A DNA stretch of 64,000 bases, from assembly GCA_963733035.1 (NCBI GenBank), contig CAVTBU010000005.1, positions 2,304,001 to 2,368,000 of the forward strand, in the 5' to 3' direction. Below the pieces are notes generated by a model that ran no database searches, had not been told where the DNA came from, and was given only the letters and a program-made list of their open reading frames with translations. Below are positions 2,851-17,654 of the stretch, piece after piece. Source of the stretch: Pirellulales bacterium (lineage in GTDB: Bacteria; Planctomycetota; Planctomycetia; Pirellulales; PALSA-1355). The position numbers and the translations under genes are program-made. Every line of letters starts with the position of its first letter. Position 1 is the stretch's first letter.

Positions 2851-4335
2851 TCACGCAAACAGCTGCGTCACGACTTCCGCCTTTACCAACTCGCGCGGTT
2901 GGTTCAAGTGGTTGTAAACGACCGTCAGCGGGTTGATGCCAACCGCGTGGTAGACCGACGCGAGTAGTTCGATCGGGTGCACCGGGTTTTCCAGCGGGGC
3001 CGAGGCGGTCGCATCCGACTTGCCGTACACAAATCCGCGCTTGGCGCCCCCGCCGGCCACGATGCCGGTATAGCAGTAGGGCCAGTGATCGCGACCGTCG
3101 TCGCTGTTCGAGTTGCCCGAGGTGCTCACGCCGCGCTGCGGGCTGCGGCCGAACTCGCCGATCACCACGACCAGCGTATCGTCGAGCATGCCCCGCTCGT
3201 CCAGATCGGCAATCAGCGTTGAAATGCCGGCGTCAAACATCGGTGCCGATTGCGTCTTCATGCGGGTCGACAGACCGCTGTGATGATCCCACGAGTGATT
3301 GTCGGAGTTGGCGACCTTGGGCCATACGACTTCGACCACGCGGGTGCCGGCCTCGATCAAGCGGCGGGCAAGCATCAGGCTCTGGCCGAACGTGTTGCGG
3401 CCATATCGGTCGCGGGTGGCGTCGCTTTCGGCCTTGAGGTTGAAGGCGTCGAGCGCGCGGCCGGAACTGATCAGCCCCAACGCCTGGCCGTAGTATTCGT
3501 CCAGATCGTATTTGGCCACGGCCTTGTCGACCGCCGGCATGCCTTCGCTGATCAGGTCGCGCAAGCGAGCGCGCCGCTCGAGCCGGGCGCTGGTGACTTC
3601 CGGGCGCAGGCTCAGGTCGTCGACCTTGATATGCTCCATCTTGTTCATATCCATATCGTCGCCGGTCGGATACAGATAGTAAGGATCGTACGCCCGGCCG
3701 AGGAACCCGGCGGTGCCGCCTTTGCCCACCACGTTGCTCTCTTGCAGCGGGCGGGGAAGCATCACGAACGGCAGCATCGGCACCGTGGGCGGCTTCAGGC
3801 GAATGATGTTCGAGCCGAACGTGGGGAAGTCCTTCGGCGACGGCGGCTCGAGCTGTCCCGACGGGCTCACTTTGTCGGTCGTATAGCCGGTATGAATCTG
3901 ATAGATGGCCGCCGTGTGATTGAACAGCCCGTTGGGCGTGTAGCTCACCGAGCGGATCATCGTGAACTTGTCGTTTACCTGCGCGAGCTTCGGCAGATTT
4001 TCAGTGAACTGCACGCCGGGGATTTTGGTTGGGATCGGCTTGAAGATGCTCTTCACATTGTCCGGCACGTTTTCTTTCGGATCCCACAAGTCGAGGTGAC
4101 TCGGTCCGCCTTGCAGGTAGACCATGATCACGCTCTTGGCCTTGTTCCACCCAGGGCCGCTGCCGCTGAACGCCTCGGGCGAATTGGTGGCGGCCTGCGC
4201 CTGCTTGAGTTGCAGGATGTCGGCCAGGCTGAGGCCGAGCAGCGAGGCACCCCCAACGCGCAAGATGTCGCGCCGCGTGGGCCCCATGCCCCGATCGCAA
4301 TTGTCCTTGGCAAGCTGTCCGGGGATCCTGAGCAT
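2851..4335 (-). CDS. DUF1501 domain protein (Tat-type leader)
   Basis: TRRDILRVG leader; [32 protein letters not shown] and GRDHW motifs. Confidence 0.9.
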
Positions 4336-4871
4336 GCTCGCATACCTCCGGTAAACGGATGTTGGTGGGTTGTGCTGGGGGAAGGCAGGCAGAGCCCGAC
4401 CGCCGCATTGGCCAGCCAGACTCGACAGGGCATCCAGCCCAACTCTCGACAGGAATGCGAAGCGCGAAGCGCAGCCTCACCCCCGCCGGGAGCCGCCCGC
4501 AGTATAACGGCAGACTTTGATGGGTGTCAAATTTCAAGCGCGCCAGGCGGTTCCTCGGTGCCAGGACAACCACGATTCCGATCGTCCGACGGCCTTTGCG
4601 GCAACAAAGTGGCTCGGTTTCGATTTTCAAAGATTTCCGAGTGGCTCGATTTTCGAGCTGCACTTTTTGTGAAACTTTTCATTCCTAAGGGAGGCCGAAA
4701 AACCGAACAATTCACCTCCCCAAACCGTGCATTTGCCCTTGTTTGACCATCAAAAAAACCCCCGCAGACTCGGTCCATAATCTCTCGACCCTAAGCTAGG
4801 CGAAAGGCTGGCCCGATTGCTAGAGACAAACCCAGCTAAAGTCGCTGACGCGGGTGCGCGGCAGGAAGAAT

Positions 4872-4894
4872 GTAGGTCAGGCCCTGGCCTGACA
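4872..4894 (+). repeat. GTAG-type REP
   Basis: GTAG-GTCAGGCC-CT-GGCCTGAC-A palindrome upstream of the RAYT. Confidence 0.85.
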
Positions 4895-4998
4895 GACGGT
4901 GATGGACCCGGACGTTCGACCCCGCTTAAAAACTCCGCGCCCGCCCGTGGCCTCACGCTCTGTTGTTGCGGCCGCAGCACGCGTCTAAAATTGCTCTC

Positions 4999-5550
4999 AT
5001 GTCCGAATACCGGCGGTACTTCGTGGCGGGCGGAACGTACTTTTTTACCGTCGTGACAGACGCCCGCGCGCCGCGATTCGACGACGCGCTTGCCCGGCGT
5101 CTGCTTGGCAGCGTACTTCGTCGTTGCGTTTTGCGGGCGCCGCTGCGAGTGCTGGCGATTGTCCTACTTCCAGACCACCTGCATTGCCTTTGGACCTTGC
5201 CGCCGGGCGATAGCGACTATTCCGCGCGATGGAACTGGATTAAGGGAGAGTTCACACGACAATGGCTGCAACTCGGCGGCCGAGAAAGCCCGCCAACTCA
5301 GGCGCGACGTTCCCAGCGTCGTCGTGGCGTTTGGCAGCGCCGCTTCTGGGAACACACGATCCGCGATGAGAATGACCTTGAGCGTCACGCCGACTATATT
5401 CACTACAATCCCGTCCGGCACGGTTTGGCCACGCGCCCGCGAGACTGGCCCTGGTCGAGTTTCCATCGTTGGGTGCGTCTAGGTCACTATCCGGCCGATT
5501 GGGGCCGCGACGGAACAGAAATCGAGTTGGGCTATGAAGGCGCCGAGTAG
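4999..5550 (+). mobile_element. REP-associated tyrosine transposase (RAYT/TnpA-REP, HUH Y1)
   Basis: GGTYFFTVVT, LPDHLH (HUH), WQRRFWEHTIR, YIHYNPVRHG and WPWSS motifs; flanked by REPs. Confidence 0.92.
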
Positions 5551-5566
5551 ACCAGACCGCGGCCCG

Positions 5567-5632
5567 GTCGGTCAGGCCCTGGCCTGACAGGCAAGCGTTG
5601 TCGGGCATCTGTCAGGCCAGGGCCTGACCTAC
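5567..5632. repeat. REPIN (inverted REP doublet)
   Basis: REP at 5567-5589 (GTCG variant) and an exact reverse-complement REP at 5610-5632, with a 20-bp spacer. Confidence 0.85.
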
Positions 5633-5657
5633 AAGTCTTTCGAAAGCGAGGATTGAG

Positions 5658-6173
5658 ATGACTGTTCGAAGCCGAATCACACCGAGCGTCTTCACGAAAT
5701 CCGTGGTCACGAAAATCATGGTCGTCGTCGTGCTCTTCGCGCTGCTGGCCGTGCCGGCACTGGCGCCCGCGGCCAGGCCGGACGCTGCGTCGTCGTCCCC
5801 CTTTCCGCATACGGTGAAATTCGAGCCGGGGGAAACGCGCTTCGACAATGGCGATGTGATCACGATCGACGAAGTCGACGGTACCGCGGCTACGTTTACG
5901 CCGGGCAATATCTACTGGATCAAGGGAACGTACACGCTCGCCTCGCGCGACGAGGCCACGCTGGCTGCTTACGTCACGGCGGCGGATTCCCAAGACGCGC
6001 GCAGCTACTCGTTTGACGTCCAGACGCGCGATTGCAAGCGGGGGAGCGGCAAGTTCACGCTGCTGCTGCCGATGTCCTACCGCGGCTGGCCGCACGTGAG
6101 TTTCTACCCCGCCGCCGGCGGCCAAAGTTTTGGCGGCACCTATTTCGGAACCGGCGACTCCGTGCGGAAGTGA
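5658..6173 (+). CDS. Hypothetical exported beta-rich protein
   Basis: RBS (GAGG), hydrophobic N-terminal segment, typical codon usage. Confidence 0.6.
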   Translation: MTVRSRITPSVFTKSVVTKIMVVVVLFALLAVPALAPAARPDAASSSPFPHTVKFEPGETRFDNGDVITIDEVDGTAATFTPGNIYWIKGTYTLASRDEATLAAYVTAADSQDARSYSFDVQTRDCKRGSGKFTLLLPMSYRGWPHVSFYPAAGGQSFGGTYFGTGDSVRK

Positions 6174-6241
6174 TGGTGAGGGACTGCGCTGGAGAAAGAC
6201 CAACTGCGACACGACTGTTCCGAAAGTGCCGGAACAGGATG

Positions 6242-6275
6242 GCGTCCCGTTTAAGTCCCCCTTAATTCCCCTATT
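6242..6275 (-). repeat. Cassette-boundary A arm (TAAACGGGACGC) with degenerate tandem copies
   Basis: Minus strand reads TAGGGGAAT-TAAGGGGGACT-TAAACGGGACGC. Confidence 0.6.
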
Positions 6276-6399
6276 TGGCAGGCGAATTGCTTTTTGCTAG
6301 ATTCGCGCTGCTTTGCGGTGGCCGCCAGCGCATTGTTGACCCTCTACGACTTTCGGCACGTGGTGCCGAGCGGCTTGTTTATAAGGTGCTGAAATCGCC

Positions 6400-7035
6400 A
6401 TGCAGCGTGCCTTGTCGCGGTTTATTGAGCATGCCCGGGAGCGCGGGTTGGATCATGTAACGATCTTTTTGCTGCTGAAGTCGGTGGGCTGGAAGGAGCG
6501 GGAGATTTCTGGGGCGATTGCCGAGCGGGAGCTGGCGATGCCGATTCCCGAGCGGGCGGGGGTTGGCTCGCCTCGCGACGCCTTCTTTCACTTGCTGGCG
6601 TTCACCGCGCTGTATGCCTGGGCCATCAGCTTGATCTACGTCTGCTTTACGTACATCAACTTTACGTTTCCCGATCCGGCCAAGCCGACGCCGACGTATG
6701 TAGTCGAATCCGTGCTGTCGAGCGTTCGCGTGGCGCTGGCCGCGCTGTTGGTCGCCTACCCTTTGTTTCTCGGGACCTGGTGGTTCCTGCTTGGCGAAGT
6801 GCGGAAGTATCCCGACAAGTCAAAGAGTCCTCTACGCCGCTGGCTCACATCGCTGACGCTGTTCGTTGCCGCGAACGTGATCCTGGGGGACGCGATCACG
6901 GTGGTTTACTATTTCGTCGAGGGAGACCTGACGGTTCGGTTTCTGCTCAAGGTGTTGGTCCTGTTCGTCGCGACGGGGGCCCTGTTCATTTATCTCGCAC
7001 TGACGCTGCGGGGCGAGGCGGAGGCTGGCAAATGA
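6400..7035 (+). CDS. DUF5671-like membrane protein
   Basis: RDAFFHLLAF..LY, LRRWLTSLTLFVA and GDLTVRFLLKV motifs; about 4 TM helices. Confidence 0.7.
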   Translation: MQRALSRFIEHARERGLDHVTIFLLLKSVGWKEREISGAIAERELAMPIPERAGVGSPRDAFFHLLAFTALYAWAISLIYVCFTYINFTFPDPAKPTPTYVVESVLSSVRVALAALLVAYPLFLGTWWFLLGEVRKYPDKSKSPLRRWLTSLTLFVAANVILGDAITVVYYFVEGDLTVRFLLKVLVLFVATGALFIYLALTLRGEAEAGK

Positions 7036-7471
7036 CCGGACGTTTGCACGTGGTCTTTGGTGTCCTTTCGGCATGCACGGTGATGCTGGCCATCGGATTG
7101 GGCTTTTCGCTGGTCGGATCGCCGACGACCCGCCGCGCGGAGCGGTTCGACGAAGAGCGTTTGCGGGATCTGCAGGTGATCGTTCGCGAAGTTCACAACC
7201 TGGTCGTCGAGCCGGGACCGCCGCCCACGCTCAGGGGACCGCTGCCTAAAACGCTGGACGAGATCGCCGAAAAGGCGCGGCTGGAAAAGATTGTCACCCA
7301 CGATCCCGAAACGGGCGAAGCGTACCGCTACGTCGTCAAGGACGGAACGACTTTCGAACTGTGCGCCGCTTCACGCATGCCCGCAAGTCCACCGACAGCG
7401 TGTACTGGAATCACCCCGCCGGCCAGCACTGCTACACGGTCAAAGTGCTCGACCCACCACCGTTCTACTGA
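7032..7471 (+). CDS. Single-TM partner of DUF5671 (frameshift near 7368)
   Basis: ATGA overlap with the upstream gene. GSP...R..RFDE.RL.DL and DPETG..Y.Y....FELCA continue in another frame as F...WNHPAGQHCY. Confidence 0.6.
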
Positions 7472-7525
7472 CGGAAATTCGATCGCTAGGGGAGTAAAAT
7501 AAAGGGGAATCAGCAGGGGAGTTGC

Positions 7526-7554
7526 AAAGGGGGACGCGATTTGCATCCCCTTAA
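7526..7554. repeat. Two-armed junction site (A|A)
   Basis: AAAGGGGGACGC-GATTT-GCATCCCCTTAA, flanked by degenerate GGGGAGT..TAAAGGGGA copies (7487-7565). Confidence 0.7.
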
Positions 7555-7613
7555 ATTACTCCCCAGAGAATGGTGGTTGGGGATGGCGTGCTGATTGTGA
7601 ACGACAATTTGCC

Positions 7614-9077
7614 ATGGGCCGAGTCATGCCTGTCACATTAGATTCCTTGGTTCGATTTGTCTGCAGCGCTGCGGTGATTTTCTTGCTAGGGTCACTTGAA
7701 AGATGCGACGCACAAATGGAGCGTGCCGGCTCCGCAGCACAGGCTTCCAAGGGAGCGGCGAAACTTGCGGCGTCCGATCTACTGACCGATGACCAGATCC
7801 GGCCGCCCAGAGTGTTTCGTTCGGCGAGGCGAAGTGGATGGTCCGTCTCGAGTTGCCCTCCTTCGACAATGGTATACGACTTCCGGGTCGTCCAGAGCGG
7901 TTCGCCATTACCAACGGTTTCATCCACACTCCGTTCAAGACCGCATCATAAACCGGCACCTGGACGATGGCACGTATGGCCCCACAGCACGTCGGCGAGG
8001 CGGCATTATCGATCAGGTCGCATGTTCTCAGGCAGGCATTGCAGTGACATCTCGACCACCGACCGTGGCGAGTTGCCGGATGCCGGACGCTTCATCGTCA
8101 TGAAAAATTGGGCAGGCGACGGCATCCGCGAACTCAAAGGGCACGCCTGCATGCCGTGGCGCGTCTGGGCGTCACCGACGGCACGCGGGTTGCCTCCTGC
8201 GCCGATGACAAGACGATGCGTCTCTGGGATGCTGACAGCGGGCGCGAATTGGCCGCATTCCCGGGGTATGGATACGGCGGAAACTTAAGCACGCGGCGGG
8301 GTGAGTTCGTCTCGTTTTCGCCGGACGGCAAGTGGCTGGCGACAGCCTTTGAGCATCGCATATCGCTTCGCCGCCCGTCCGATGGAAAGGAGGTAGCGGT
8401 TTGGAACTTGGACCAGCAACTGGAGATGTTCGAGATTCTCCAAGGCATCCGCTTCTCTGCAGACAGCCAGTCCTTGCTCGCATTCCGTCCGATGACGTTT
8501 CAGCCGCACGACCGCCAGAAATTCTTTTGTGGAGCATCCACTCTGCGAAGCAAACCGTCTTCATCGGCGACCACGACGCGATTGATGGCCGACTTAGCGA
8601 GGACGGGGAGAACGTCTTTACTTGGAATAGCTCACCGGCGATTACTCTTTGGGCGTGCGCAGCAAGAACGTAGTGCGCACAGTCAACGTAGCTCCGAAGC
8701 ACCTGTGGGCCATCGCGTTTTCCAAAACGGCGAATATGATTGCGGCCGCGGGTGACGACGGTGAAGTGCGATTTTGGAACTTCACGACCTTCGAGAAGTG
8801 CAATCCGAAGCGATGCTACAAGCACAAGGGCATCCAAACCGTCCAGTTTAGTGAAGACGGCACGTATCTTGTGACGGCTGCCGCCGATGGCTCCCTCGCT
8901 GTGTGGGACAGCTTTCCCACGATTAGATGTGCCCGTTCCACGAACCTTTCAATTACCCACAAGTTCCTGTACCGCCGTTTTGCGGTACAGGCTAATCTTG
9001 TAGCAGCGGAGCTTTGTTTTCAATTCGTCAATTCGCTGAAGGTAAGGGGTGGTCAGGTCAATCCAGCCGATTTTTAA
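7614..9077 (+). pseudogene. WD40-repeat protein, multiply frameshifted
   Basis: WD40 fragments lie in different frames: ASCADDKTMRLWD, FSPDGKWLATA, AGDDGEVRFWN, FSEDGTYLVTAAADGSLAVWD. Confidence 0.7.
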
Positions 9078-9323
9078 GCTCGCGCAGTTTGCTCACGTGT
9101 TTGATCAACGGGAGGGCCTCGTAGACGGCCTTGCGATTCCGAAGCGTTACGCTGGCAACACGGCCACCGAGTCCGACGACACGCCCGTATTCCTTCGCGG
9201 CGGCGGTGGCTTTTTCACGCTTGCGTTCAACCATCACTGCAAGTGCGCCGCAGGCAATCAATAGACCCGTGGCGATAATCGCAGCTTTTCACCAGATGCT
9301 TGAGGCCTAGACATGGGAGTCAC

Positions 9324-9352
9324 TAAAGGGGATGCGAAGACGCGAACCTTTT
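9324..9352 (+). repeat. Two-armed junction site (A|B)
   Basis: TAAAGGGGATGC-GAAGA-CGCGAACCTTTT. Confidence 0.7.
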
Positions 9353-9418
9353 CGTGCACGACTCCGGGCCATGGTTTACGCGATAAGACTGCGGCGTCCG
9401 CACGCTGTTCCGCCAAAG
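9353..9418 (+). mobile_element. Short degenerate IS transposase 3' fragment
   Basis: Similar to 14341-14410 (shares TCGTGCA.GA.TC and TGCGGCGTCCGCA). Confidence 0.5.
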
Positions 9419-9955
9419 CATTTCAAAGAACAGCGCGTGTTAGCGGGGATTCATACAGTCATCTTGGATCACGCGCCGGCAATTACCGGCGTGTGATTGG
9501 TGCCGTCGGAAAAATTTCCGGATTTCTTGTCAGGAACCTGCGCACGGCGGTCCAAAGATTCATGACAGGTGGTGTCTCAGTATTCGGTATTAGGCTACAA
9601 ACTAAATCCAAAATCGCCCGCGGCCGGGGCAGTTTGCTTCAACAAGTTCGGTGCACGCGGGCAGTCCGCCCAACGCCACCAACGATAACGGGTACACGGC
9701 CGACGGCGGCGGTTTCGAGACGCCCAGCGGCCTGCCGAGAAAATTTGACCGCCGGCGCTTATTTGTGCTACCCTCATCCCAACATTTAGGCAGCGCCAAT
9801 GAGTCAACCTAACAATGAGCGTTTGTTGGCAACATGCTGTGATCTGTAGGCCTCGTGCCTGCGGATCGTAGCATTTTTTTTGCGGCAGAGAGCTGGCTGG
9901 CCGCGGTGGGGTCATTACGCGGAAATGTACCACACAACTGTTGAGGGAAACGCCG

Positions 9956-10987
9956 ATGAGACTTAGCAAACGACGAGCGGGCATGGCAGTGATCGCGATC
10001 ATTGGATGTGTGGTGACGCTGCCCGCACCGCCGGCCCGGGCGCTGACGATCACCGTGAACTACGAGGGGACCGTTCCGGCGGCCGCGAAGACCGCCTTTA
10101 ATACGGTCAAGTCGCTTTACGAGCATACGTTCGTCAACCCGATCGATGTCAAAATCGACGTTCGCTTCGGCACGGTAGCCCTGGGCGCGACGAGCAGCAA
10201 CTTCATCTCCATGTCGTACGCGGATTGGAAGACCGACATGAGCAACACGTCGGCCCTGTATCCGTTGAACACCTATCTGAACACCGCCAAGGGGACGCTG
10301 CCCGCGAACGATCCGATCGGCCTCGGCACCGGCAATGGAGTTGTGTATGTCCGGGCGGCCAATGCCAAGGCCATCGGCGTGACGGCAGGCCAGACGACTG
10401 GCACGTTTCCCAACTCCATCAACGGCGCCTATGACGCGGTGCTCACATTCACGGACGCGGCCAACACGTTCGAATACAACGGCGTGGGAGTCGCCGACAA
10501 ATACGATTTCATGGACGCTGCCTCGCACGAGCTCAACGAAGCGCTGGGCAGCGGATCGCAGTTGACTAATATCGCCAACAATGCGGTGCTGGGGGCCAAC
10601 ACGGCATTTGAACCGGAAGATTACTTCCGCTATGACGCCTCCGGCAGCCGCTCGATCACGACCGATCCGAACGCAGCCGTCTATTTCACTTACGATCCGT
10701 CGCTGGCGGTTTATCTCGACCGGTTCAATCAAGATAACAACAAGGGGGACCGTAACGACTGGATCTGGGGGAATTTTGGAGTGCCGGCGTCAACCATCGA
10801 AGTGCAAAGCGCGGTCATGTGGCAAAACCAAATCGCCCCCTTGCTCAGTCCCAGCCCGGCCACGCCCGAGTTCGTCGTGCTGAGCACGCTGGGCTACTCG
10901 GTCCCCGAGCCCTCGACCTACGCACTGGCATTCTGCGGCCTCGCCTCTCTCGCGCTGGCTCGACGGTGGACGAGAGGGAGGAACTAA
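9956..10987 (+). CDS. PEP-CTERM secreted zincin-like protein (NF038122-like)
   Basis: Signal peptide; RAANAKAIG, YDF...ASHELNEALG and DYFRY motifs; C-terminal VPEPST + TM + RR. The stop codon lies in an A arm. Confidence 0.8.
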   Translation: MRLSKRRAGMAVIAIIGCVVTLPAPPARALTITVNYEGTVPAAAKTAFNTVKSLYEHTFVNPIDVKIDVRFGTVALGATSSNFISMSYADWKTDMSNTSALYPLNTYLNTAKGTLPANDPIGLGTGNGVVYVRAANAKAIGVTAGQTTGTFPNSINGAYDAVLTFTDAANTFEYNGVGVADKYDFMDAASHELNEALGSGSQLTNIANNAVLGANTAFEPEDYFRYDASGSRSITTDPNAAVYFTYDPSLAVYLDRFNQDNNKGDRNDWIWGNFGVPASTIEVQSAVMWQNQIAPLLSPSPATPEFVVLSTLGYSVPEPSTYALAFCGLASLALARRWTRGRN

Positions 10988-11013
10988 AGGGTACGAGAAG
11001 ACGCAAACCTTGA
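10985..11013 (+). repeat. Two-armed junction site (A|B)
   Basis: TAAAGGGTACGA-GAAGA-CGCAAACCTTGA. Confidence 0.65.
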
Positions 11014-11019
11014 CGTTGG

Positions 11020-11218
11020 TGACTCGACTCTGAGGCCAATCATTGCTTCGCACGCCAGGAGTGCGGTTTCCGCACCCTGATCGCGGCCAAGCAGGGCCGT
11101 CCGACGGACAAGCCCGCGCGGCACCGATATCGACGGCTGATGCTGCCGAAATCTCCGCTTGATGGCGCTGACGCGTAACGTCATGATCCTGTTGCGCGGG
11201 GAGATTTTCTACTGAGCC
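11020..11218 (+). mobile_element. IS (DDE, IS4/IS5-like) 3' remnant with right IR
   Basis: Encodes DSEANHCFARQECG...GRPTDKPAR and LRLMALTRNVMILLR. Ends ATTTTCTACTGAGCC. Homologous to 14350-14646. Confidence 0.65.
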
Positions 11219-11246
11219 GCCCGTAAGCTATTTTCGACTGTGTGCC

Positions 11247-12041
11247 ATGCGCAAGCTTTTTCATCGAAGACGTCGCCCGTTGCTGTGCGCTTCCGTCGGC
11301 AGACGGACAATTTGCGAAATCAACCAAGCCCCCCACAAGGAATGGCCAATTGTTGAGTTTTCACAATTGAGCCCCGTGCTTCAACTTCTGGACGCGGACG
11401 GTAAAGCATACTGCCACGACCTGACGTCCATTGTGCAAGAGGGCATACGATGGGGCTATTTTTCGATCACAATCGGCAAAGGATTGACCTGCCAGGCCGA
11501 CGCAATATTGATGAAAAAGGAAGGTGACGCGCCAGAAGCATTCGCGGCGGGCAGGGCGGACGGTTTGAGGCTGCAACCGTTCTATCTACCAGGCTGTCAC
11601 AGCCGGCCTTCTGAGCTAGTTGGACGTGGCCTGTTTTTTCGCGGACTTCACTATAGCGGCACGGTTACACCCGGAAATGTCTCGCTGTCCTGTATTTGCG
11701 ATGTGTGCGACGCAGCTTTCGGGTGCAATCGTTCCACACAGGCTTCAGTGGATCGTCATATTTTTATTGCAGCAACGGACCGCATACGCTTGAGGTCAGC
11801 GCGACACACCGAGGGTGCTCCGCCCGCCTCAGGCAAGGCGGATCCTGAGAGCTTGGCCGCGCTTGAGACACGGTTACCTGCCTGCTCCCATTGCGGAGGC
11901 ACCTTCGCATATCTCAACTCTTTTCGTTGTCCGCATTGCGCCGCACCATACATCGACTTCGGGAGATTCCCATCCGAGCGGGAAATCGAGTACTACGGCA
12001 ACTACCTATACGGAGAGGAGTTGCAAAGATTCAGGCCGTAG
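11247..12041 (+). CDS. Hypothetical protein with CxxC Zn-ribbon motifs (possibly frameshift-damaged)
   Basis: CICDVC, CSHCGG and RCPHC motifs; lower GC than the core genome. Confidence 0.55.
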   Translation: MRKLFHRRRRPLLCASVGRRTICEINQAPHKEWPIVEFSQLSPVLQLLDADGKAYCHDLTSIVQEGIRWGYFSITIGKGLTCQADAILMKKEGDAPEAFAAGRADGLRLQPFYLPGCHSRPSELVGRGLFFRGLHYSGTVTPGNVSLSCICDVCDAAFGCNRSTQASVDRHIFIAATDRIRLRSARHTEGAPPASGKADPESLAALETRLPACSHCGGTFAYLNSFRCPHCAAPYIDFGRFPSEREIEYYGNYLYGEELQRFRP

Positions 12042-12065
12042 TGAGCGATTAAAGGAGGGCTAACC

Positions 12066-12094
12066 TAAAGGGGACGCAATTCTCGTCCTCTTCA
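12066..12094. repeat. Two-armed junction site (A|A')
   Basis: TAAAGGGGACGC-AATTC-TCGTCCTCTTCA. The right arm (TGAAGAGGACGA on the minus strand) contains the lipase stop codon. Confidence 0.65.
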
Positions 12095-13396
12095 ATCCGC
12101 AGGTGCAGAAGCGGGCGTTTTCGTGGAGAGTTCCGTAAACCACTTGAGGGCTTTGGGGACGGCTTGCAGCACGGAGGCATTGTGCGCGTAGGGGCCGACG
12201 GAGATCGCCTGCACGTCGGCTCCGCGCTGCTGCATTTCGGCCGCGGCGCGCTGGGCTTCCTCGGGCAATACGTCCTCGTCTTCTTCGCCGTAATAGATGC
12301 GGACCGGGACCTGCGGGGTCCAATCGGCGACGCTGTTCGCGGCGAGCGCGTCGAGAAACCAGTGCGGTTGACCCTTGTCGTACGCTTCGAGCAGTTCCGG
12401 CGTGAACAGCTCGCGTGGATTCTTGGGAAGCGCCGCCGCGATGCGTTCGGTCTGATGAGCGCCGTCGAACAGGGTGGGAACCTCTTTGGCATAGGGCTCG
12501 ACCAAGATCGAATCGAGCGGATGACCGTACGCCTGGGCATAGGCATTGGCCAGGTACGCCAGGTAGAACGCGTGCGAAGGGCTACGGCCGGTCAGCGCTT
12601 GTGGAAAACTCACGTCGCGCAGGTAGAACGGTCCGGCAATCGGCGCGGAGGCGACGACGTACAGATCCGGATCGGCATTCTGCTGGAGCGCCCGTTGCAC
12701 GGCGAACGTGGCATGGCCCCCTTGCGAGAAGCCGAGCAAGAACAATGATTTCGGCCAGGGCCGCTGCAAGTGCGTGACCAGTTTCTGGGCGGCGCGCATT
12801 AAGTCGATCGACGTGGAAGCGGTGACGCCGGCGAGCATGTAGGGGTGACGATCTTGGCTTTCTCCGAGGCCGATGTAGTCGGGTGCAACAAGCAGGTGTC
12901 CCGTACCGGCGACGGCGGCGGCCAACACCAGTCCTTCGCCTGCCCCCGATTGAGAAGGGGCCGTCCGCCGTTCGGCATTGGTGCCGTGAAAGTACGCCAG
13001 GACGTCATGCGGCGCGCTGTCATTTGGAAGTGCCACCAGCCCGGAGGCCGCGACCGGCAAACCGTCGATGCCTGTCGTTTGATAGCGCAGGCGGTAGAGC
13101 GTGATCCCGTGTTGCACGGCGATCGGCTCGGGCAGGTCGACGGTATCGAGCAGATACTGCGTTGCGAAGCGCGGATACTTCCCGATCCGCGAGACCGATA
13201 CCAGGTCGCCCGGCTCGTCTCCGCGCAGCGATTCGGGAACCGAGACGGCGAAGGTGCCGACCGCCCGATGCATGGCGATGCCACCTGCCAGCGAGAGCGT
13301 GGCAAGGATCGCAAATACGACCAGCGCAAAGCGTCGCCATCGGCTCGCCTTAGGACGCACCGTTGGATCGGGCAGAGACGTGGGTTGGTCGGTCAT
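12092..13396 (-). CDS. Secretory lipase-like alpha/beta hydrolase
   Basis: N-terminal TM; HGT, APDYIGLG and GFSQGG nucleophile elbow; C-terminal Asp/His. Confidence 0.85.
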   Translation of the reverse strand: MTDQPTSLPDPTVRPKASRWRRFALVVFAILATLSLAGGIAMHRAVGTFAVSVPESLRGDEPGDLVSVSRIGKYPRFATQYLLDTVDLPEPIAVQHGITLYRLRYQTTGIDGLPVAASGLVALPNDSAPHDVLAYFHGTNAERRTAPSQSGAGEGLVLAAAVAGTGHLLVAPDYIGLGESQDRHPYMLAGVTASTSIDLMRAAQKLVTHLQRPWPKSLFLLGFSQGGHATFAVQRALQQNADPDLYVVASAPIAGPFYLRDVSFPQALTGRSPSHAFYLAYLANAYAQAYGHPLDSILVEPYAKEVPTLFDGAHQTERIAAALPKNPRELFTPELLEAYDKGQPHWFLDALAANSVADWTPQVPVRIYYGEEDEDVLPEEAQRAAAEMQQRGADVQAISVGPYAHNASVLQAVPKALKWFTELSTKTPASAPAD

Positions 13397-13421
13397 GGCG
13401 TTGGCTCCACGAGGTACACGA

Positions 13422-13457
13422 GAGGTATCTAAAGGGGGAGGTATCTAAAGGGGACGC
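13422..13457 (+). repeat. A arm with perfect 16-bp tandem duplication
   Basis: GAGGTATCTAAAGGGG x2, then ACGC. Confidence 0.75.
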
Positions 13458-13629
13458 AAAGGCTCTGAAGAAAACTGCTCTGCTGTCTTAAGCTGCTAGC
13501 TCGGTTGGGTGCGTAGTGGGTTTGTGGCGCGCACCAGCAAATCTCCGAAGGCGGTGGCGCGGGCGGCGCTTGTGGCCGCTCAGCGGGTACTGCCGTTCTA
13601 CACGCATCCCAACAGCCCAAAGAAGAAGA

Positions 13630-13830
13630 AAAGGTGCCAGGAACCTATTTCTGGCTTTCTGGGGGTCAGACCAACGCGGGCGCGCCACGATGGCTCGCCC
13701 AGGGGGCTGCCGCGCTGCACACTGCGGCGAATCGCTTCCAACTCCGCGTCGCTTTGCGGGGCGTTGACCCAAGCGGTCCGGCCACGCCGTCGCGGCAGCG
13801 GGCAGACCGCCAGCAACGACTTGTCCTCGG
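13630..13830 (-). pseudogene. C-terminal fragment of a second Y1/HUH (RAYT-like) transposase
   Basis: WVNAPQSDAELEAIRRSVQRGSPLGEPSW resembles the C-terminus of this clade; followed by GGTTCCTGGCACCTTTT. Confidence 0.55.
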
Positions 13831-13863
13831 GCGATCCCCGCCCAGCAGTATGACCATTTTGCT

Positions 13864-14211
13864 TTACGTGGGCGCACCACTGTCCGTCTGCCTTGGAGGA
13901 TGTAAGGGCAGCTTTGTCTGTGGAATATCCCTGTCAAGCCAGTGGCGCAGCTTGGCATAGAATTCGCCCGAGGTTTCACCGTCTCCTCGTTTGCAAGCTC
14001 CGAACGATTTGCATCGACGTTTGATTTCGGCGGCTCCTTCGGGAGTTCGTTCCAATTTGGCAACAAAGTCGAGCAATTGGGTCAGCTTGTCCTCGATAAG
14101 TTCGCTATCGAGCAGCTTCTCTTGCGGACTTTTATATTGGAAGGTCTTCTCGTGGCCTGCACGATTTGCCCTTCGGCTGCGGTCCACATTCGTTCTCCGT
14201 TGGTATTCCAA
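13864..14211 (-). CDS. Hypothetical protein
   Basis: 115-aa ORF with protein-like composition in a lower-GC insert. The start is uncertain. Confidence 0.45.
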   Translation of the reverse strand: MEYQRRTNVDRSRRANRAGHEKTFQYKSPQEKLLDSELIEDKLTQLLDFVAKLERTPEGAAEIKRRCKSFGACKRGDGETSGEFYAKLRHWLDRDIPQTKLPLHPPRQTDSGAPT

Positions 14212-14672
14212 ATTCCTGCTGATGACATCATAGCAGTTTATGCGCCGTCAAAGTTTGCTTCGTGAACTCGAGTCCCAGCTTTGTTGGTGCTGGGAGCGGT
14301 TTGTACTGCGGCAGTCATTAGAGGCGTACGCGAACCTTTTTCGTGCATGATTCGGGGGCCATTGCTTCGCGCGCAGGAGTGCGGCGTCCGCAGGCTGGTC
14401 GCGACCACGTATTGTCGCCCGACGGACAAGCCCGCGCGAGAACACCATCGGCAGATGCAAACGCGTATCACGAAAGGAAGTACCACCGCCGCGGCCAAGT
14501 GCAAACGGCGAACTCAACGATCAAACGCCACCAAGGCGATTACGCCCCGAGCCGAACCGTCCAAGCCCAATGCCGAGATCTCCGCTTGATGGCGCTAAAG
14601 CACCAGGCCATGATTCTGTTGCGCGTGAACGTTTTCTAACTGAGCCCGACGCGAACCTTTGTCTCCCACTTG

Positions 14673-14702
14673 AAAAGGTTTGCGTCAGTTGCGTCCCCTT
14701 TA
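14673..14702 (-). repeat. Two-armed junction site (A|B) with adjacent tandem duplication
   Basis: Minus strand GGATTAAATAAAG x2, then TAAAGGGGACGC-AACTGA-CGCAAACCTTTT. Confidence 0.75.
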
Positions 14703-14712
14703 TTTAATCCCT

Positions 14713-15546
14713 TTATTTAATCCGACGCCGCTGCCGAAGCGTGGTGACCACCATGGCCAGCACGGCGGCTTGTGCCAACAGCCAGCCGCTGGCGGGCTCC
14801 GGTACCAGAAACGGGTCGAGAGAAAAGTTGTCGACGGCGTGGGCCCCGTTGCCCGTAACAACAAAGCCGGGATACAGCGAGGCGTCGGCCGCGAAGCCTT
14901 GCGTGTCGGGCGTTTGCGTTACGTGCTTGAAAACTGTGCCGAGGAAGTTCAAACCATCCAGGCCGTAATCGTCGATCCGGACACCGTATTGGATCTGTCC
15001 GCCGAGATTCGTGAAGGCGACTTGAAAATCGTACCAGTGATCGGCACGGATCGTTCCCTTGGTGAAGTTGAACGTAAAGCCCGGAAACGAACCTCCGCCG
15101 GCTTGGAGCGTTCCGCCTTCGATCCGATCGACGCTCGAAGTTGATTCGAGCGAGACAAACAGATGCGCGTCGTAGTTGCCGAACTCGCTCGCCGTATGCA
15201 CCAGATAGGTTTCGTGATAGGTGCCGAAGAAGCCGGGCATCAGTCCCGACAAGTCCCCCGCGTGAAAGAACTGCGAGATGTAGATCGTATCGCCGGGATG
15301 ATTGAACGCCCGCGAGGAAGTCAGCGTGCTTGCGTGCGCCGTGCTCGTCACAAGCGATCCCGAGGGACCGATGCCGTAGCCCGGGCTCCAGGCAATCGGC
15401 GAGTACGAGCCATAATTCTGCCGCGAAAAGTAGAACAAGTCGGTCGAGCTGTTGTAGTCGATCGTCGTTGCCTGGCAGGTTCGCCCGGCAGCCACAAAAA
15501 GTGGGATCACCGTCGTCGCGGCAACCAATACCGACAGTGCACGCAT
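14713..15546 (-). CDS. PEP-CTERM secreted protein
   Basis: Signal peptide MRALSVLVAA...; C-terminal VPEPAS + TM + RQRRR. Confidence 0.8.
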   Translation of the reverse strand: MRALSVLVAATTVIPLFVAAGRTCQATTIDYNSSTDLFYFSRQNYGSYSPIAWSPGYGIGPSGSLVTSTAHASTLTSSRAFNHPGDTIYISQFFHAGDLSGLMPGFFGTYHETYLVHTASEFGNYDAHLFVSLESTSSVDRIEGGTLQAGGGSFPGFTFNFTKGTIRADHWYDFQVAFTNLGGQIQYGVRIDDYGLDGLNFLGTVFKHVTQTPDTQGFAADASLYPGFVVTGNGAHAVDNFSLDPFLVPEPASGWLLAQAAVLAMVVTTLRQRRRIK

Positions 15547-15876
15547 GCGAAGTCCTCGACCGTTCGGATGAGTTGGCTCCCCGTACCCCGAGACGACATC
15601 CGCCACGCGACCAGCTTCTCACTACTTCGGGGTATATATAATGCCCCACATTATTGATGAGCGCTCGAAAAACGTCAAACAGATTCGACTTGCTCGCACG
15701 GAAATAGCTAGTTCTAAACTGCACATTAACGCGCTCCCGCTCGTGATCGTGGCGGCTGTGGAAAAGGGCGGCCGGTTCCAGCCACCTTCCATCGGTCGGG
15801 TGCTTTCGCCGCGGCGGCCCAAGCGGTTCAATGTTGGAAACGACCGCAGCCGCTGGACCGTGGGAGGACGCCCGAG

Positions 15877-16131
15877 ATGGACGAAATCAAGCGCATGCAA
15901 CACGGACTGCGCATGCTCGAAGCGCTCCGCGAATTGTTGCAGAGTGGCGACTTGAGCGCCGAGGAGTGCGATCGCGCCGAGCGGATTATCGAGTTCGACG
16001 AAAGCCTTCGGGCCCCCGGTGCCGGCGACGAGAAGATTCTGGGCGTCAGCATGAACTTGTTGAGCAACGCGCACTTCGACCTGATCGAAGCCTTCCTAGC
16101 AGAACACGGCGTGACCGTTCCCGCGGAATGA
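15877..16131 (+). CDS. Hypothetical small acidic protein
   Basis: GGAGG RBS; helical, protein-like composition. Confidence 0.5.
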   Translation: MDEIKRMQHGLRMLEALRELLQSGDLSAEECDRAERIIEFDESLRAPGAGDEKILGVSMNLLSNAHFDLIEAFLAEHGVTVPAE

Positions 16132-16152
16132 CCGCCACCGGCCGCCACACAT

Positions 16153-16184
16153 TAACCCGAAGCCCGCGCTCGCGCGTCGGGTTA
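16153..16184. terminator. Hairpin between convergent genes
   Basis: TAACCCGA...TCGGGTTA inverted repeat. Confidence 0.4.
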
Positions 16185-16218
16185 GTAGACGGCGGTCCAA
16201 CGACCGCGTTCGCCCGCT

Positions 16219-17654
16219 CTACGCAATCAGCTCTTTCACCACGCGGCCGTGGACGTCGGTGAGGCGGAAGTCGCGGCCGGCGTAGCGGTAGGTGAACTTC
16301 TCGTGGTCGAAGCCCATCAGGTGCAGGATCGTGGCGTGCAGGTCGTGCATGTGGACGCGGTTTTCGACGGCGGCGAAGCCGAACTCGTCGGTCGCGCCGT
16401 GCACGTAGCCGCCGCGGACGCCGCCGCCGGCCATCCACATCGTGTAACCGTGATGGTTGTGGTCGCGGCCGTTGATCTTGCCGGCATTCGCTCCCTTCTT
16501 CGGCAGCTCGACCGTCGGCGTGCGGCCAAACTCCCCGCCCCAGATGACCAGCGTTTCGTCGAGCAGCCCGCGGGCTTTGAGGTCTTTGAGCAGCGCGCCG
16601 ATGGCTTGGTCGCACTGCTGGGCCAGGCGGCGGTGATTCACTTCGATGTCGTCGTGGCTGTCCCAGGGTTGTCCTTGCCCGTGCCAGACCTGGACGAATC
16701 GCACGCCGCGCTCGACCAGCCGGCGGGCAATCAGGATCTGCCGCGCTTGCGTTCCTTCGCCATACATGTCGAGGATGTGCTGCGGTTCGCGGCTGACGTC
16801 AAACGCGTCGGTCGCTTCGCTCTGCATGCGGTAAGCCAGCTCGAACGACTGGATCCGCGATTCGAGCTGTTCATCGCCGCGGCGATCTTCCAGGTGCAGC
16901 GCGTTAAGCTGGCCGAGCAAGTCGAGCTGGCGGCGCTGCTGCTCGCGGCCGATGGCCTTGTTCTCGATGTTCTCGATCAGCCGGGCGATTTCCTGGTGCT
17001 TGGTGTCGATGTAGGTGCCCTGGAAGACGCCCGGAAGGAAGCCTGACTGCCAGTTCTGCGACTCTTGAATCGGATAGCCGCCGGGGCACATCGAGATGAA
17101 GCCGGGCAGGTTCTGGTTGTCGGTGCCCAGGCCATAGGTGAGCCAGCTCCCCATGCTGGGGCGGATTTGCCGCGGCTCGCCGCAGTTGGTGAGCAGCAGT
17201 TGCATCTCGTGGCTGGGCGCGTCGCCGTACATCGAACGGATCACGGCGATGTCGTCAATGCACGCGGCCGTGTGCGGGAAGATCTCGCTGACCTCGATCC
17301 CGCTTTCGCCGTACTTCTGGAACTTGTACGGAGAGGCGAAGGCCGCGCCGGTTTTGCGCTCGGTCTTGAGGTTGAACGGCAACTCCTGGCCGCTGCGTTT
17401 GGTGAGCTCGGGCTTGGGATCGAACGTGTCGACGTGCGAGGGTCCGCCGTTCATGAACAGGTGAATGATGTGCTTGGCCTTGGCCGGAAACTGCGGCATC
17501 CTGGCGCGAGCGGCCGGATCGAATCGGCCGCCGCCGGCGCGAGCAAGCCCTGGCCGCCCAGCAACTGGCCGAGTGCCAGCGAGCCGAAGCCGAGCCCGGT
17601 TCGACGGAGCAAGTCGCGGCGCGTCAGGCTGCAGGAGTGGTCGCTGGCGGTCAT
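16219..17654 (-). CDS. DUF1501 domain protein (frameshift near 17500)
   Basis: The Tat leader TRRDLLRR is in a different frame from the GGPSHVDTFDPK...GEFGRTP...GRDHN body. Confidence 0.85.

Follow-up and report, generated by a model that had tools for sequence, protein, structure and literature searches.

RAYT-like genes that lie between long terminal inverted repeats (TIRs) have been described as TIRtrons encoding TIRYT proteins (Di Nocera, De Gregorio and Rocco, 2013; PMC3733652). In the sections of these reports available to us, some TIRtron TIRs carry a GGGGWSAS motif (PMC3733652, PMC6006769), TIR families of moderate abundance are found singly, as dimers or in groups, with R. baltica among the rich hosts (PMC3733652), and most TIRYTs fall into Y1 subclass 2.1, with a C-terminal, helix-turn-helix (HTH)-like extension (Quentin et al., 2018; PMC6006769). 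Here we analyze a 64,000-nucleotide (nt) stretch of a Pirellulales bacterium genome, referred to as the window, in which a short site with two apparent arms, A and B, recurs between unrelated genes from position 6242 to 14702. An earlier reading of the window (the original prediction) had taken this for an undescribed site of tyrosine-recombinase architecture. We propose instead, with a probability of roughly 0.7, that the recurring site is the TIR of a small insertion sequence (IS)-like unit encoding a RAYT-like Y1/HUH transposase, that is, a TIRtron/TIRYT of the class described in 2013, and that the genes between the TIRs are mostly island genes with repeats lodged in the gaps separating them.

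A rare and clustered repeat

The window corresponds to C5:2304001-2368000 of the source genome (G000; 6.65 Mb in 10 contigs, cited here as C5, C6 and C7, with 60% G+C and 92% completeness), and all seven sites listed by the original prediction are present in it and read as written there. At two or fewer mismatches, the A arm matches the window 13 times versus 6.97 expected, a count reached by 2 of 100 shuffles; 11 of the 13 matches fall in 6242-14702, the remaining two (28458 and 37126) carry two mismatches, and those at 8135 and 10287, within genes inside the array, are probably chance hits. The B arm alone is not enriched in the window at the same stringency (15 matches versus 12.3 expected, with 33 of 100 shuffles reaching that number). 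Across G000, TAAAGGGGACGC is found in 11 exact copies versus 0-3 for eight shuffled 12-mers; with one mismatch allowed, the A arm gives 22 matches, which is not unusual because shuffled 12-mers span 4-68. A TIR profile built from 29 sites and then run on the same genome, so that its E-values are not independent, returned 38 matches at E ≤ 10 in 6.65 Mb, the strong ones all lying in about 10 loci, with eight in this 8.5-kb stretch. The repeat is thus real, rare and strongly clustered.

The same picture emerges from a census of the A arm in 401 genomes of the order Pirellulales, with the reversed pattern as a control. Eight or more arms occur in only five genomes, all of one family (G000, 15; G007, 18; G257, 12; G279, 10; G252, 8), the remaining genomes have four or fewer, and the control gives 0-6. 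The three genomes of the window's own genus (G001-G003) have no arms; G007 belongs to the same family and another genus. G000 carries TIR dimers and clusters besides singles, with only about 30 copies in total, and the repeats are confined to a few islands.

The repeat bounds a Y1 transposase unit in related genomes

In G007 the repeat flanks a 792-bp unit that comprises a 26-bp perfect TIR containing both A and B, a sigma-70-like promoter-like site (TTGACA-17-TACGAT) just inside the left end (LE), an open reading frame (ORF) of 229 amino acids (aa) and the inverted TIR. Three complete copies, 96.7-100% identical, are accompanied by four partial ones, and by their sequence the full units look currently active and appear to behave like active IS. 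The ORF product matches Pfam Y1_Tnp and scores 58-67 bits with the NCBIfam REP_Tyr_transpos (RayT) model NF047646, under its 80-bit cut-off; no match of TIRYT proteins to the IS200 transposase model NF033573 was found at E ≤ 0.01, and the sole PDB sequence match is E. coli TnpA-REP (4er8, E = 0.002). In an alignment of four TIRYT proteins, the HUH motif (HWH) and the tyrosine of RYVERNP are invariant and align with the HMH and tyrosine of 4er8, and a C-terminal extension of about 80 aa is conserved, with no Pfam HTH family matched at E ≤ 0.001 by the G000 copies. IS200/IS605 elements have no TIRs and carry different subterminal hairpins at the LE and the right end (RE) on one strand; the perfect TIRs found here set the unit apart from them.

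Similar units extend well beyond G007. Among loci extracted from G000, its relatives, a genome collection and metagenome contigs (cited with handles in L), two inverted TIRs flanking a unit are also found in L025, L044, L053, L064, L094, L099 and L104. G257, G279 and G252 carry the repeat most often as hairpin dimers, each arm containing A as well as B around an 8-12-nt loop (fold z-scores down to -9.4), together with one complete unit, and such hairpin dimers would be non-autonomous offspring of TIRYT units. A search for the exact 20-nt TIR core in a species-genome collection and in metagenomes yielded 85 loci, 30 from the collection (14 with TIRYT homology) and 55 from metagenomes (16 with TIRYT homology by tblastn). 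Many of the latter sit on short contigs, and they comprise five units bounded by a pair of inverted TIRs (spaced about 740-770 bp in four units and about 310 in the fifth), four dimers and otherwise single copies. Complete units with the same TIR are present even in records titled Binatia, where the proteins are only 51-54% identical; because the TIR stays constant while the protein diverges to about 52% identity, the TIR is likely to be the enzyme's substrate.

The source genome itself holds remnants of the unit. A close copy at C6 841005-841741 (75% DNA identity) has a TIR about 45 nt upstream of its ATG and is without the RE TIR; the TIRYT protein of G000 has 243 aa. Six G000 sites are followed, about 45 nt on, by 5' gene pieces that start with MPRTAR (Y1_Tnp/RAYT-like), and three, including the one at window position 6242, are followed by the reverse complement of the TIRYT gene 3' end; the window contains no TIRYT gene, only TIR repeats. 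The original prediction had linked its motif to HUH (Y1) transposases, and this connection is borne out, the same sequence being the TIR of Y1 units in relatives. As a separate observation, co-directional units of a TIR plus the first ~90-150 nt of the TIRYT gene are arranged in tandem, two to three of them over spans from a few hundred bases up to a few kilobases, in G000 (C7 540619-544625; L002:12619-16625) and in G257 (L022:7619-7960); these could be products of abortive copying or of the duplication of one truncated unit.

We assign the family to the TIRYT class because it combines a Y1 enzyme, long TIRs, a repeat family and 7 of 8 positions of the described motif. Shared with TIRtrons are a Y1/HUH gene with long inverted repeats instead of GTAG-tagged repetitive extragenic palindromes (REPs), a GGGG-containing motif, moderately numerous additional copies of the repeat that stand alone, as dimers or in groups, planctomycete hosts (R. 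baltica among those named) and a C-terminal extension beyond the Y1 core. Differences lie in the TIR sequence and its cross-phylum conservation, neither of which is met in the available parts of PMC3733652 and PMC6006769, in the several identical full units of G007 and in the restriction of the repeats to a few islands; a cargo-bearing TIR-led module and targeting by an IS5-like element, both set out below, are added here. REP/REPIN-RAYT systems, to judge from the portions of the reports available (Nunvar 2010, PMC2817692; Bertels & Rainey 2011, PMC3337134), likewise have a Y1/HUH gene between inverted short repeats, non-autonomous doublets forming long hairpins and a location after genes. They differ from the present family, in which there is no GTAG, a single copy forms no hairpin, copies number tens rather than hundreds and the protein scores under the RayT cut-off.

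Two arms of one TIR

The TIR of about 26 bp consists of a purine-rich outer part, then TAAAGGGGACG, then YGAACCTTT, and is without a GTAG tag; when all copies are aligned, their homology sets in upstream of TAAAGG, at a GGGAG-like, purine-rich stretch. A runs directly into B with no spacer in many of them, and the two arms are co-directional, adjacent parts of one TIR rather than head-to-head partners. The 'A-5nt-B' sites are single TIRs with an 8-9-nt tandem duplication (GACGCRAA) directly after TAAAGGG, a long form with two similar 8-9-nt units that was found at six sites in G000 and one in G007, and it is this duplication within the TIR that produces the near-constant 5-6-nt 'spacer'. The 'A-A' sites are head-to-head TIR dimers, similar to hairpins of REPINs or miniature inverted-repeat transposable elements. 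The head-to-head arrangement of the original prediction therefore stands for A-A sites but fails for A-B sites, whose arms are co-directional, fused elsewhere and weak in folding: z is -1.8 at 9315-9355 and -0.4 at 10976-11014, with about 3-30% of shuffles as good, and the fold of a single TIR does not stand out from those of shuffles (z 0.25).

Length variation of the repeat is also seen between strains. We compared the window with contigs from three metagenomic DNA runs (window shares 0.09-0.13, low depth). In the parts that match, the organisms of runs X2 and X3 look about 100% identical to it; a contig of run X2, otherwise identical to the window, is without the 9 nt at 14680, and long and short forms thus interconvert between near-identical strains. 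A metagenome strain about 96% identical to the window has 26 extra nt in the loop of the dimer at 7517-7563.

This anatomy bears directly on the recombinase interpretation, in which a dif/pdif- or attC-type site would serve an Xer-like or integron-type integrase that moves gene modules. dif and pdif sites have two inverted arms of about 11 bp around a 6-bp spacer, acted on by an Xer recombinase, and attC sites have an R''-L''...L'-R' layout of 57-141 bp with extrahelical bases; integron cassettes and pdif modules consist of unrelated, often promoter-less genes, each followed by a short imperfect palindrome, and include toxin-antitoxin cargo. The lengths of 12 + 5-6 + 12 nt do resemble Xer sites, the genes in between are unrelated and some A-A sites are true palindromes, but A and B are not inverted partners and are contiguous in the short form, the A-B folds are weak, the spacer is explained by a duplication polymorphic between strains, and a Y1 transposase unit has this very sequence as its TIR. 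In contrast to integron and pdif systems, there is no integrase, the site is the 26-bp end of an HUH transposon, and its arms are not R/L boxes or XerC/D half-sites. The sites measure 26-47 bp and by eye are without the GTTRRRY/RYYYAAC boxes of attC.

Partial outer copies, comprising the outermost 10-14 nt (X-TAAAGGG-X-TAAAGGGGACGC), flank many sites in G000 and G007, and their arrangement looks as if new copies had entered older ones. In the window, the position after TAAAGGG (9330/9331, 13452/13453 and 14694/14695) is a recurrent breakpoint, at which the 8-9-nt duplications and the IS5-like target duplication start and nested partial copies end. By its position it may be the TIRYT nick site.

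Repeat sites in the window

Four TIR states are represented in the window, namely the single TIR, the single TIR with the 8-9-nt duplication, the head-to-head dimer and one dimer split by an IS5-like element. The sites and the IS5-like pieces between them are as follows.

6203..6262, minus strand: RE-type TIR whose A arm, at 6242-6253, has one mismatch; a ~40-nt TIRYT 3'-end remnant lies on its inner side, and two partial outer arm copies extend to ~6280
7500..7511, plus strand: partial outer A-arm copy with two mismatches, supplying the stop-codon region of the ORF ending at 7502
7517..7563, unstranded: head-to-head TIR dimer (A, 5 nt, A'), outer halves only, no B arms; DNA hairpin of -12 kcal/mol, z -3.7
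9315..9355, plus strand: LE-type TIR standing singly, in the long form; an 8-nt tandem duplication lies between A and B
9356..9420, plus strand: stretch homologous to IS5-like debris at 11015-11082 and 14338-14400 (families D3 and D10)
10976..11014, plus strand: degenerate long form of a single LE-type TIR, with a TAA that serves as the metalloprotease stop
11015..11220, plus strand: 3' piece of a transposase gene of the IS5-like (DDE_Tnp_1) kind, covering residues ~113-151 and 194-215
12050..12099, unstranded: partial outer copy and degenerate head-to-head dimer (A, 5 nt, decayed A'; dimer 12057-12099; family D5); -7.3 kcal/mol, z -2.5
13430..13457, plus strand: partial outer copy and A half of a TIR, the left half of a dimer split by IS5-like insertion (family D5)
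13459..14646, plus strand: rearranged IS5-like debris, ~1.2 kb; LE end 13459, RE end 14631-14646
14647..14720, unstranded: remainder of the split dimer, with B, 12-nt loop, B', 9-nt duplication, A' (14691-14702) and partial outer copy; -11.7 kcal/mol, z -4.3

The inner flank of the first site (6203-6262) is homologous to TIRYT 3' ends at C5 2527807, C5 2532225 and C6 840964-841058. Two sites overlap stop codons, the right arm of the 12050-12099 dimer that of the lipase gene and the partial outer copy at the end of 14647-14720 that of the gene at 14713-15606. The IS5-like debris comprises 34-38 N-terminal codons (13509-13625), an internal B-arm copy (14329-14342) and about 54 C-terminal codons (14475-14636), and the arms at 13446 and 14691 on its two sides belong to one dimer split by IS5-like insertion. 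Several 'junctions' that had been counted as separate sites thus reduce to one repeat split or duplicated by an IS5-like element.

An IS5-like element at the repeat

The IS5-like family (DDE_Tnp_1) scores under the NCBIfam cut-offs. Among the IS5-like ends listed, 5 of 10 credible ones abut the A arm at the same position, right after GGGGACGC(AA), and we therefore consider that the element uses the TIR repeat as a landing site. At 13459 and 14646 the debris terminates in sequences similar to those that bound complete IS5-like copies elsewhere in G000, and GACGC stands on both sides of the insert (13453-13457 and 14648-14652); the element's target duplication would consist of the very eight bases that long-form sites contain twice, and the long form may be a remnant left after IS5-like insertion and loss. 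A module of a long-form TIR and a truncated IS5-like gene occurs three times, at 9315, 10976 and 14329. The idea that the B arm is the TIR of the IS5-like element was rejected, since full IS5-like copies end in GGCTCTGTCGAAAA-type repeats.

ISPpu9 of Pseudomonas putida, an IS that inserts into REPs (PMC8450116), offers a parallel in so far as the available part of that report describes it, the IS5-like element sitting at one fixed repeat position in at least five places; the two differ in the IS family (DDE_Tnp_1, IS5-like) and in the target, here a TIRYT repeat rather than a GTAG REP.

We suggest that TIRs would be spread by TIRYT enzymes acting on single-stranded DNA, much as RAYTs are thought to spread REPs. 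New TIR copies and IS5-like elements would prefer existing copies as targets, and such a preference would lead to a pile-up of copies in a dispensable, strain-specific island.

Island genes and their surroundings

The genes around the sites form a patchwork, and the observation that the site marks junctions between unrelated genes holds. They are listed below.

5658..6173, plus strand: ORF (171 aa) whose start resembles a signal peptide, lying between the REPtron (see below) and the first TIR; no family match
6400..7502, plus strand: DUF5671 gene (6400-7035) and an ORF to 7502 without a family match
7614..9077, plus strand: WD40 pseudogene with pieces in different frames; 8108-8752 and 8649-9074 both match WD40
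9941..10987, plus strand: NF038122-family metalloprotease with a PEP-CTERM tail
11247..12041, plus strand: ORF of 264 aa (the earlier Zn-ribbon ORF), no family match, low G+C at third codon positions (0.58)
12092..13396, minus strand: secretory lipase / alpha-beta hydrolase gene, with a 67% DNA match in G002, a genome without the arm
14713..15606, minus strand: ORF of 297 aa, PEP-CTERM-like C-terminus by eye, no family match at E ≤ 0.01

The gene calls of the original prediction were thus retained for DUF5671, the WD40 fragments, the lipase and the PEP-CTERM metalloprotease, and not for the second 'DUF5671' gene, the Zn-ribbon ORF and the 14716-15606 ORF, which have no family match. DUF1501, PSD1 and PSCyt genes give the window a planctomycete-like character. 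Its segment from 4.5 to 16.2 kb has no DNA match in G001-G003 or G007 except for the 67% lipase match and 5802-6181, and in each of these four genomes the conserved sequences flanking it on either side are found on separate contigs; by this comparison, the array sits in a strain-specific island at a synteny break. A second TIR cluster (L001) is likewise strain-specific, and in the other TIR clusters IS256, IS3 and IS5-like genes abound, together with RAYT-like fragments and accessory genes. As possible island anchors, tRNA and tmRNA genes were sought in the window and none was found, and neither the complete window nor L002, L003 or L010 yielded an Rfam family at gathering score.

The array lies next to a RayT gene (4963-5550) that scores 193 bits with NF047646 and so meets the classical RayT model. 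It is flanked by perfectly complementary, GTAG-tagged 26-nt REPs at 4871-4896 and 5608-5633 (REPtron 4871-5633), and a third REP copy at 5567-5590 forms a hairpin doublet. The REP core is low-copy in G000 (6 exact, 9 at one or fewer mismatches, three of those inside the TIR cluster at C7 538-541 kb). The neighboring RAYT had been considered as the enzyme of the site; with GTAG REPs of its own, this classical RayT is not cognate to it. Matches to miRNA models of Rfam (E ≤ 1, 4000-17000) fall only on the REP palindrome at 5561-5638 and were taken as long-hairpin artefacts.

Two further observations were made near TIR copies elsewhere in G000. An apparently non-coding 'X' repeat of about 520-620 nt is present in 16 copies, one of them at L010:14066-14696 (C7 388066-388696); four copies begin with an A+B TIR, the others are shortened on that side, and the far end is common. 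The X repeat lies upstream of unrelated genes (rpsO, a glutathione peroxidase gene and a TIM-barrel gene) and has no Rfam match. Ideas of a group II intron (class C, hairpin-targeting) or an attC site as an explanation for the 5'-cut copies were dropped, the intron because there is no Rfam intron match and no GTGYG start. Finally, a gene for an AHH-family nuclease toxin and an Imm11 immunity gene lie at L008:3376-5383 (C5 2645376-2647383), about 1.3 kb from a TIR site, as a further accessory gene pair in a region marked by TIRs.

Counter-evidence and alternative explanations

Several findings weigh against interpreting the array as TIRYT repeats scattered among island genes. No intact TIRYT gene with two TIRs was found in G000, and any recent mobility there would therefore depend on help in trans, or is over. 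GGGGACGC/T matches GGGGWSAS at 7 of 8 positions, with G where A is expected, the motif being common to many, not all, described TIRs. About six independent sites lie within 8.5 kb, each at a gene boundary and four of them co-directional, and the 55 metagenome loci, many of them on short contigs, have at most three each. For two isolated dimers, no empty site was found in the same-genus genomes (L006:5000-7600 gave no match and L007:5000-7400 only ~225 nt of one gene); these genomes are only about 70-83% DNA-identical in matching flank genes, and no alignment was obtained for the regions compared. That the 8-nt duplication is a footprint is an idea based on one occupied site and on position, not on observed excision. 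Last, there exists a TIR-led module without a transposase, and a reading of the repeats as debris has no need of cargo-leading TIRs.

That module is central to an alternative that we regard as possible but unlikely, in which HUH-driven accretion makes a single TIR and the DNA on its inner side mobile via TIRYT, by one-ended, rolling-circle-like copying as in ISCR/IS91. We entertain with similar reserve the corollary that new units would land just outside an existing TIR and build head-to-tail arrays of TIR plus cargo, of which the window run at 9324, 10985, 12066 and 13446 would be one. The module, of about 640 nt, consists of a TIR and two small ORFs (79 and 71 aa), the second with weak matches to MqsA/YgiT-type Zn-ribbon antitoxins (E 1e-4), and it is found at the following loci.

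L103:3996-4637: TIR-led module
L090:1233-1866: TIR-led module
L076:3388-4026: TIR-led module
L081, L066/L102 and L092: further occurrences of the TIR-led module

Copies in L103, L090 and the group L076/L081/L066/L102 are 95-97% identical in otherwise unrelated surroundings (at least three contexts), and since a TIR-led module without a transposase recurs in this way, TIRs can lead cargo. Homology starts exactly at the TIR outer end and stops about 10 nt past the second stop codon, and a degenerate, co-directional TIR-like sequence follows 20-90 nt downstream in L103, L090, L076 and L081, with none seen in L102. The group L076/L081/L066/L102 represents the same place in related organisms, and the DNA at the TIR outer edge differs there by 0.7 and 1.1 kb, which shows this edge to be an active breakpoint. 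A 257-aa ORF is cut off by the module after about 20 codons in L076, whose counterpart in L102 comes after the stop codon of that ORF; in L081 (2176-3991) an inverted A-like arm and a 258-aa membrane-protein ORF stand in between. A second short repeat with GGGTCAGGAGCCTTTTCTT, which resembles the TIR of another family, was also noted at L103 ~4795-4867 and at L090 1153-1225 and 2297-2352, so that the L090 module has a copy on either side and the L103 module one downstream.

Accretion would also accommodate the 'TIR + truncated IS5-like' pieces that head two different genes at 9315 and 10976, the recurrence of TIR + 5'-gene-fragment units of ~90-150 nt in both G000 and G257, and the partial outer copies at many sites, as if new copies had entered old; however, many transposons commonly leave adjacent deletions and nested insertions behind, and neither calls for a cassette logic. 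The cargo genes of the window were not found TIR-led elsewhere, the metalloprotease having only one 35% relative in five TIR-bearing genomes, which was not examined for TIRs. Two window units are opposite in strand to the 'leading' TIR (the lipase) or are pseudogenes, and the toxin-antitoxin-like module is the only non-transposase interior present in more than one context among the 85 loci. No joints or circles appeared in the metagenome contigs compared with the window, and contigs show these poorly; two sub-threshold contig jumps (5105 to 16281 and 13130 to 12240) were set aside as likely paralogue artefacts at 90% likeness. ISCR/IS91 elements have Y2 HUH enzymes, distinct ori and ter ends and no TIRs, and capture adjacent genes by one-ended rolling-circle copying. 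An HUH enzyme with a single active end could, in like manner, explain variable TIR-led units and adjacent deletions; the present elements differ in having TIRs, and nothing shows rolling-circle copying. That TIRYTs build head-to-tail arrays of unrelated genes, an integron-like accretion by an HUH single-strand transposase with the window as its densest known example, is a proposal we advance only tentatively and consider doubtful. The dedicated cassette-accretion system of the original prediction is not shown for the window and is kept as a minority reading, with its evidence in metagenome loci.

We consider it very improbable that the palindromic copies are held under selection as transcript-end structures (mRNA stabilizers or terminators), their transposon origin being incidental. 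Most sites do lie at gene 3' ends, four supplying or overlapping a stop codon, and dimers fold stably; REPs, too, are mostly downstream of coding regions, as stated in the available part of PMC3733652. Single TIRs, however, do not fold, no T-run follows the hairpins in the window, and the copies number only about 30, are confined to islands and are absent from the same-genus genomes. Weakest of all, and scarcely credible given the anatomy described above, is the tyrosine-recombinase site, for which neither an integron integrase in G000 (best TIGR02249 score 81 bits versus a cut-off of 265) nor, among 19 tyrosine-recombinase-like matches of G000, a single one in the window was found.

Meaning for the TIRYT family

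Interpreting the repeat as a TIRYT end removes a false lead, in that an apparent new cassette site is a transposon end and its two-arm look a small duplication. It also provides a usable description of one TIRYT family, with a TIR shared across phyla, units, dimers and an IS5-like landing pad, for a class of elements that has had almost no follow-up since 2013 in the literature using the terms TIRYT or TIRtron. Were the accretion proposal true, TIRYTs would give bacteria a second way, independent of integrases, of stacking accessory genes.

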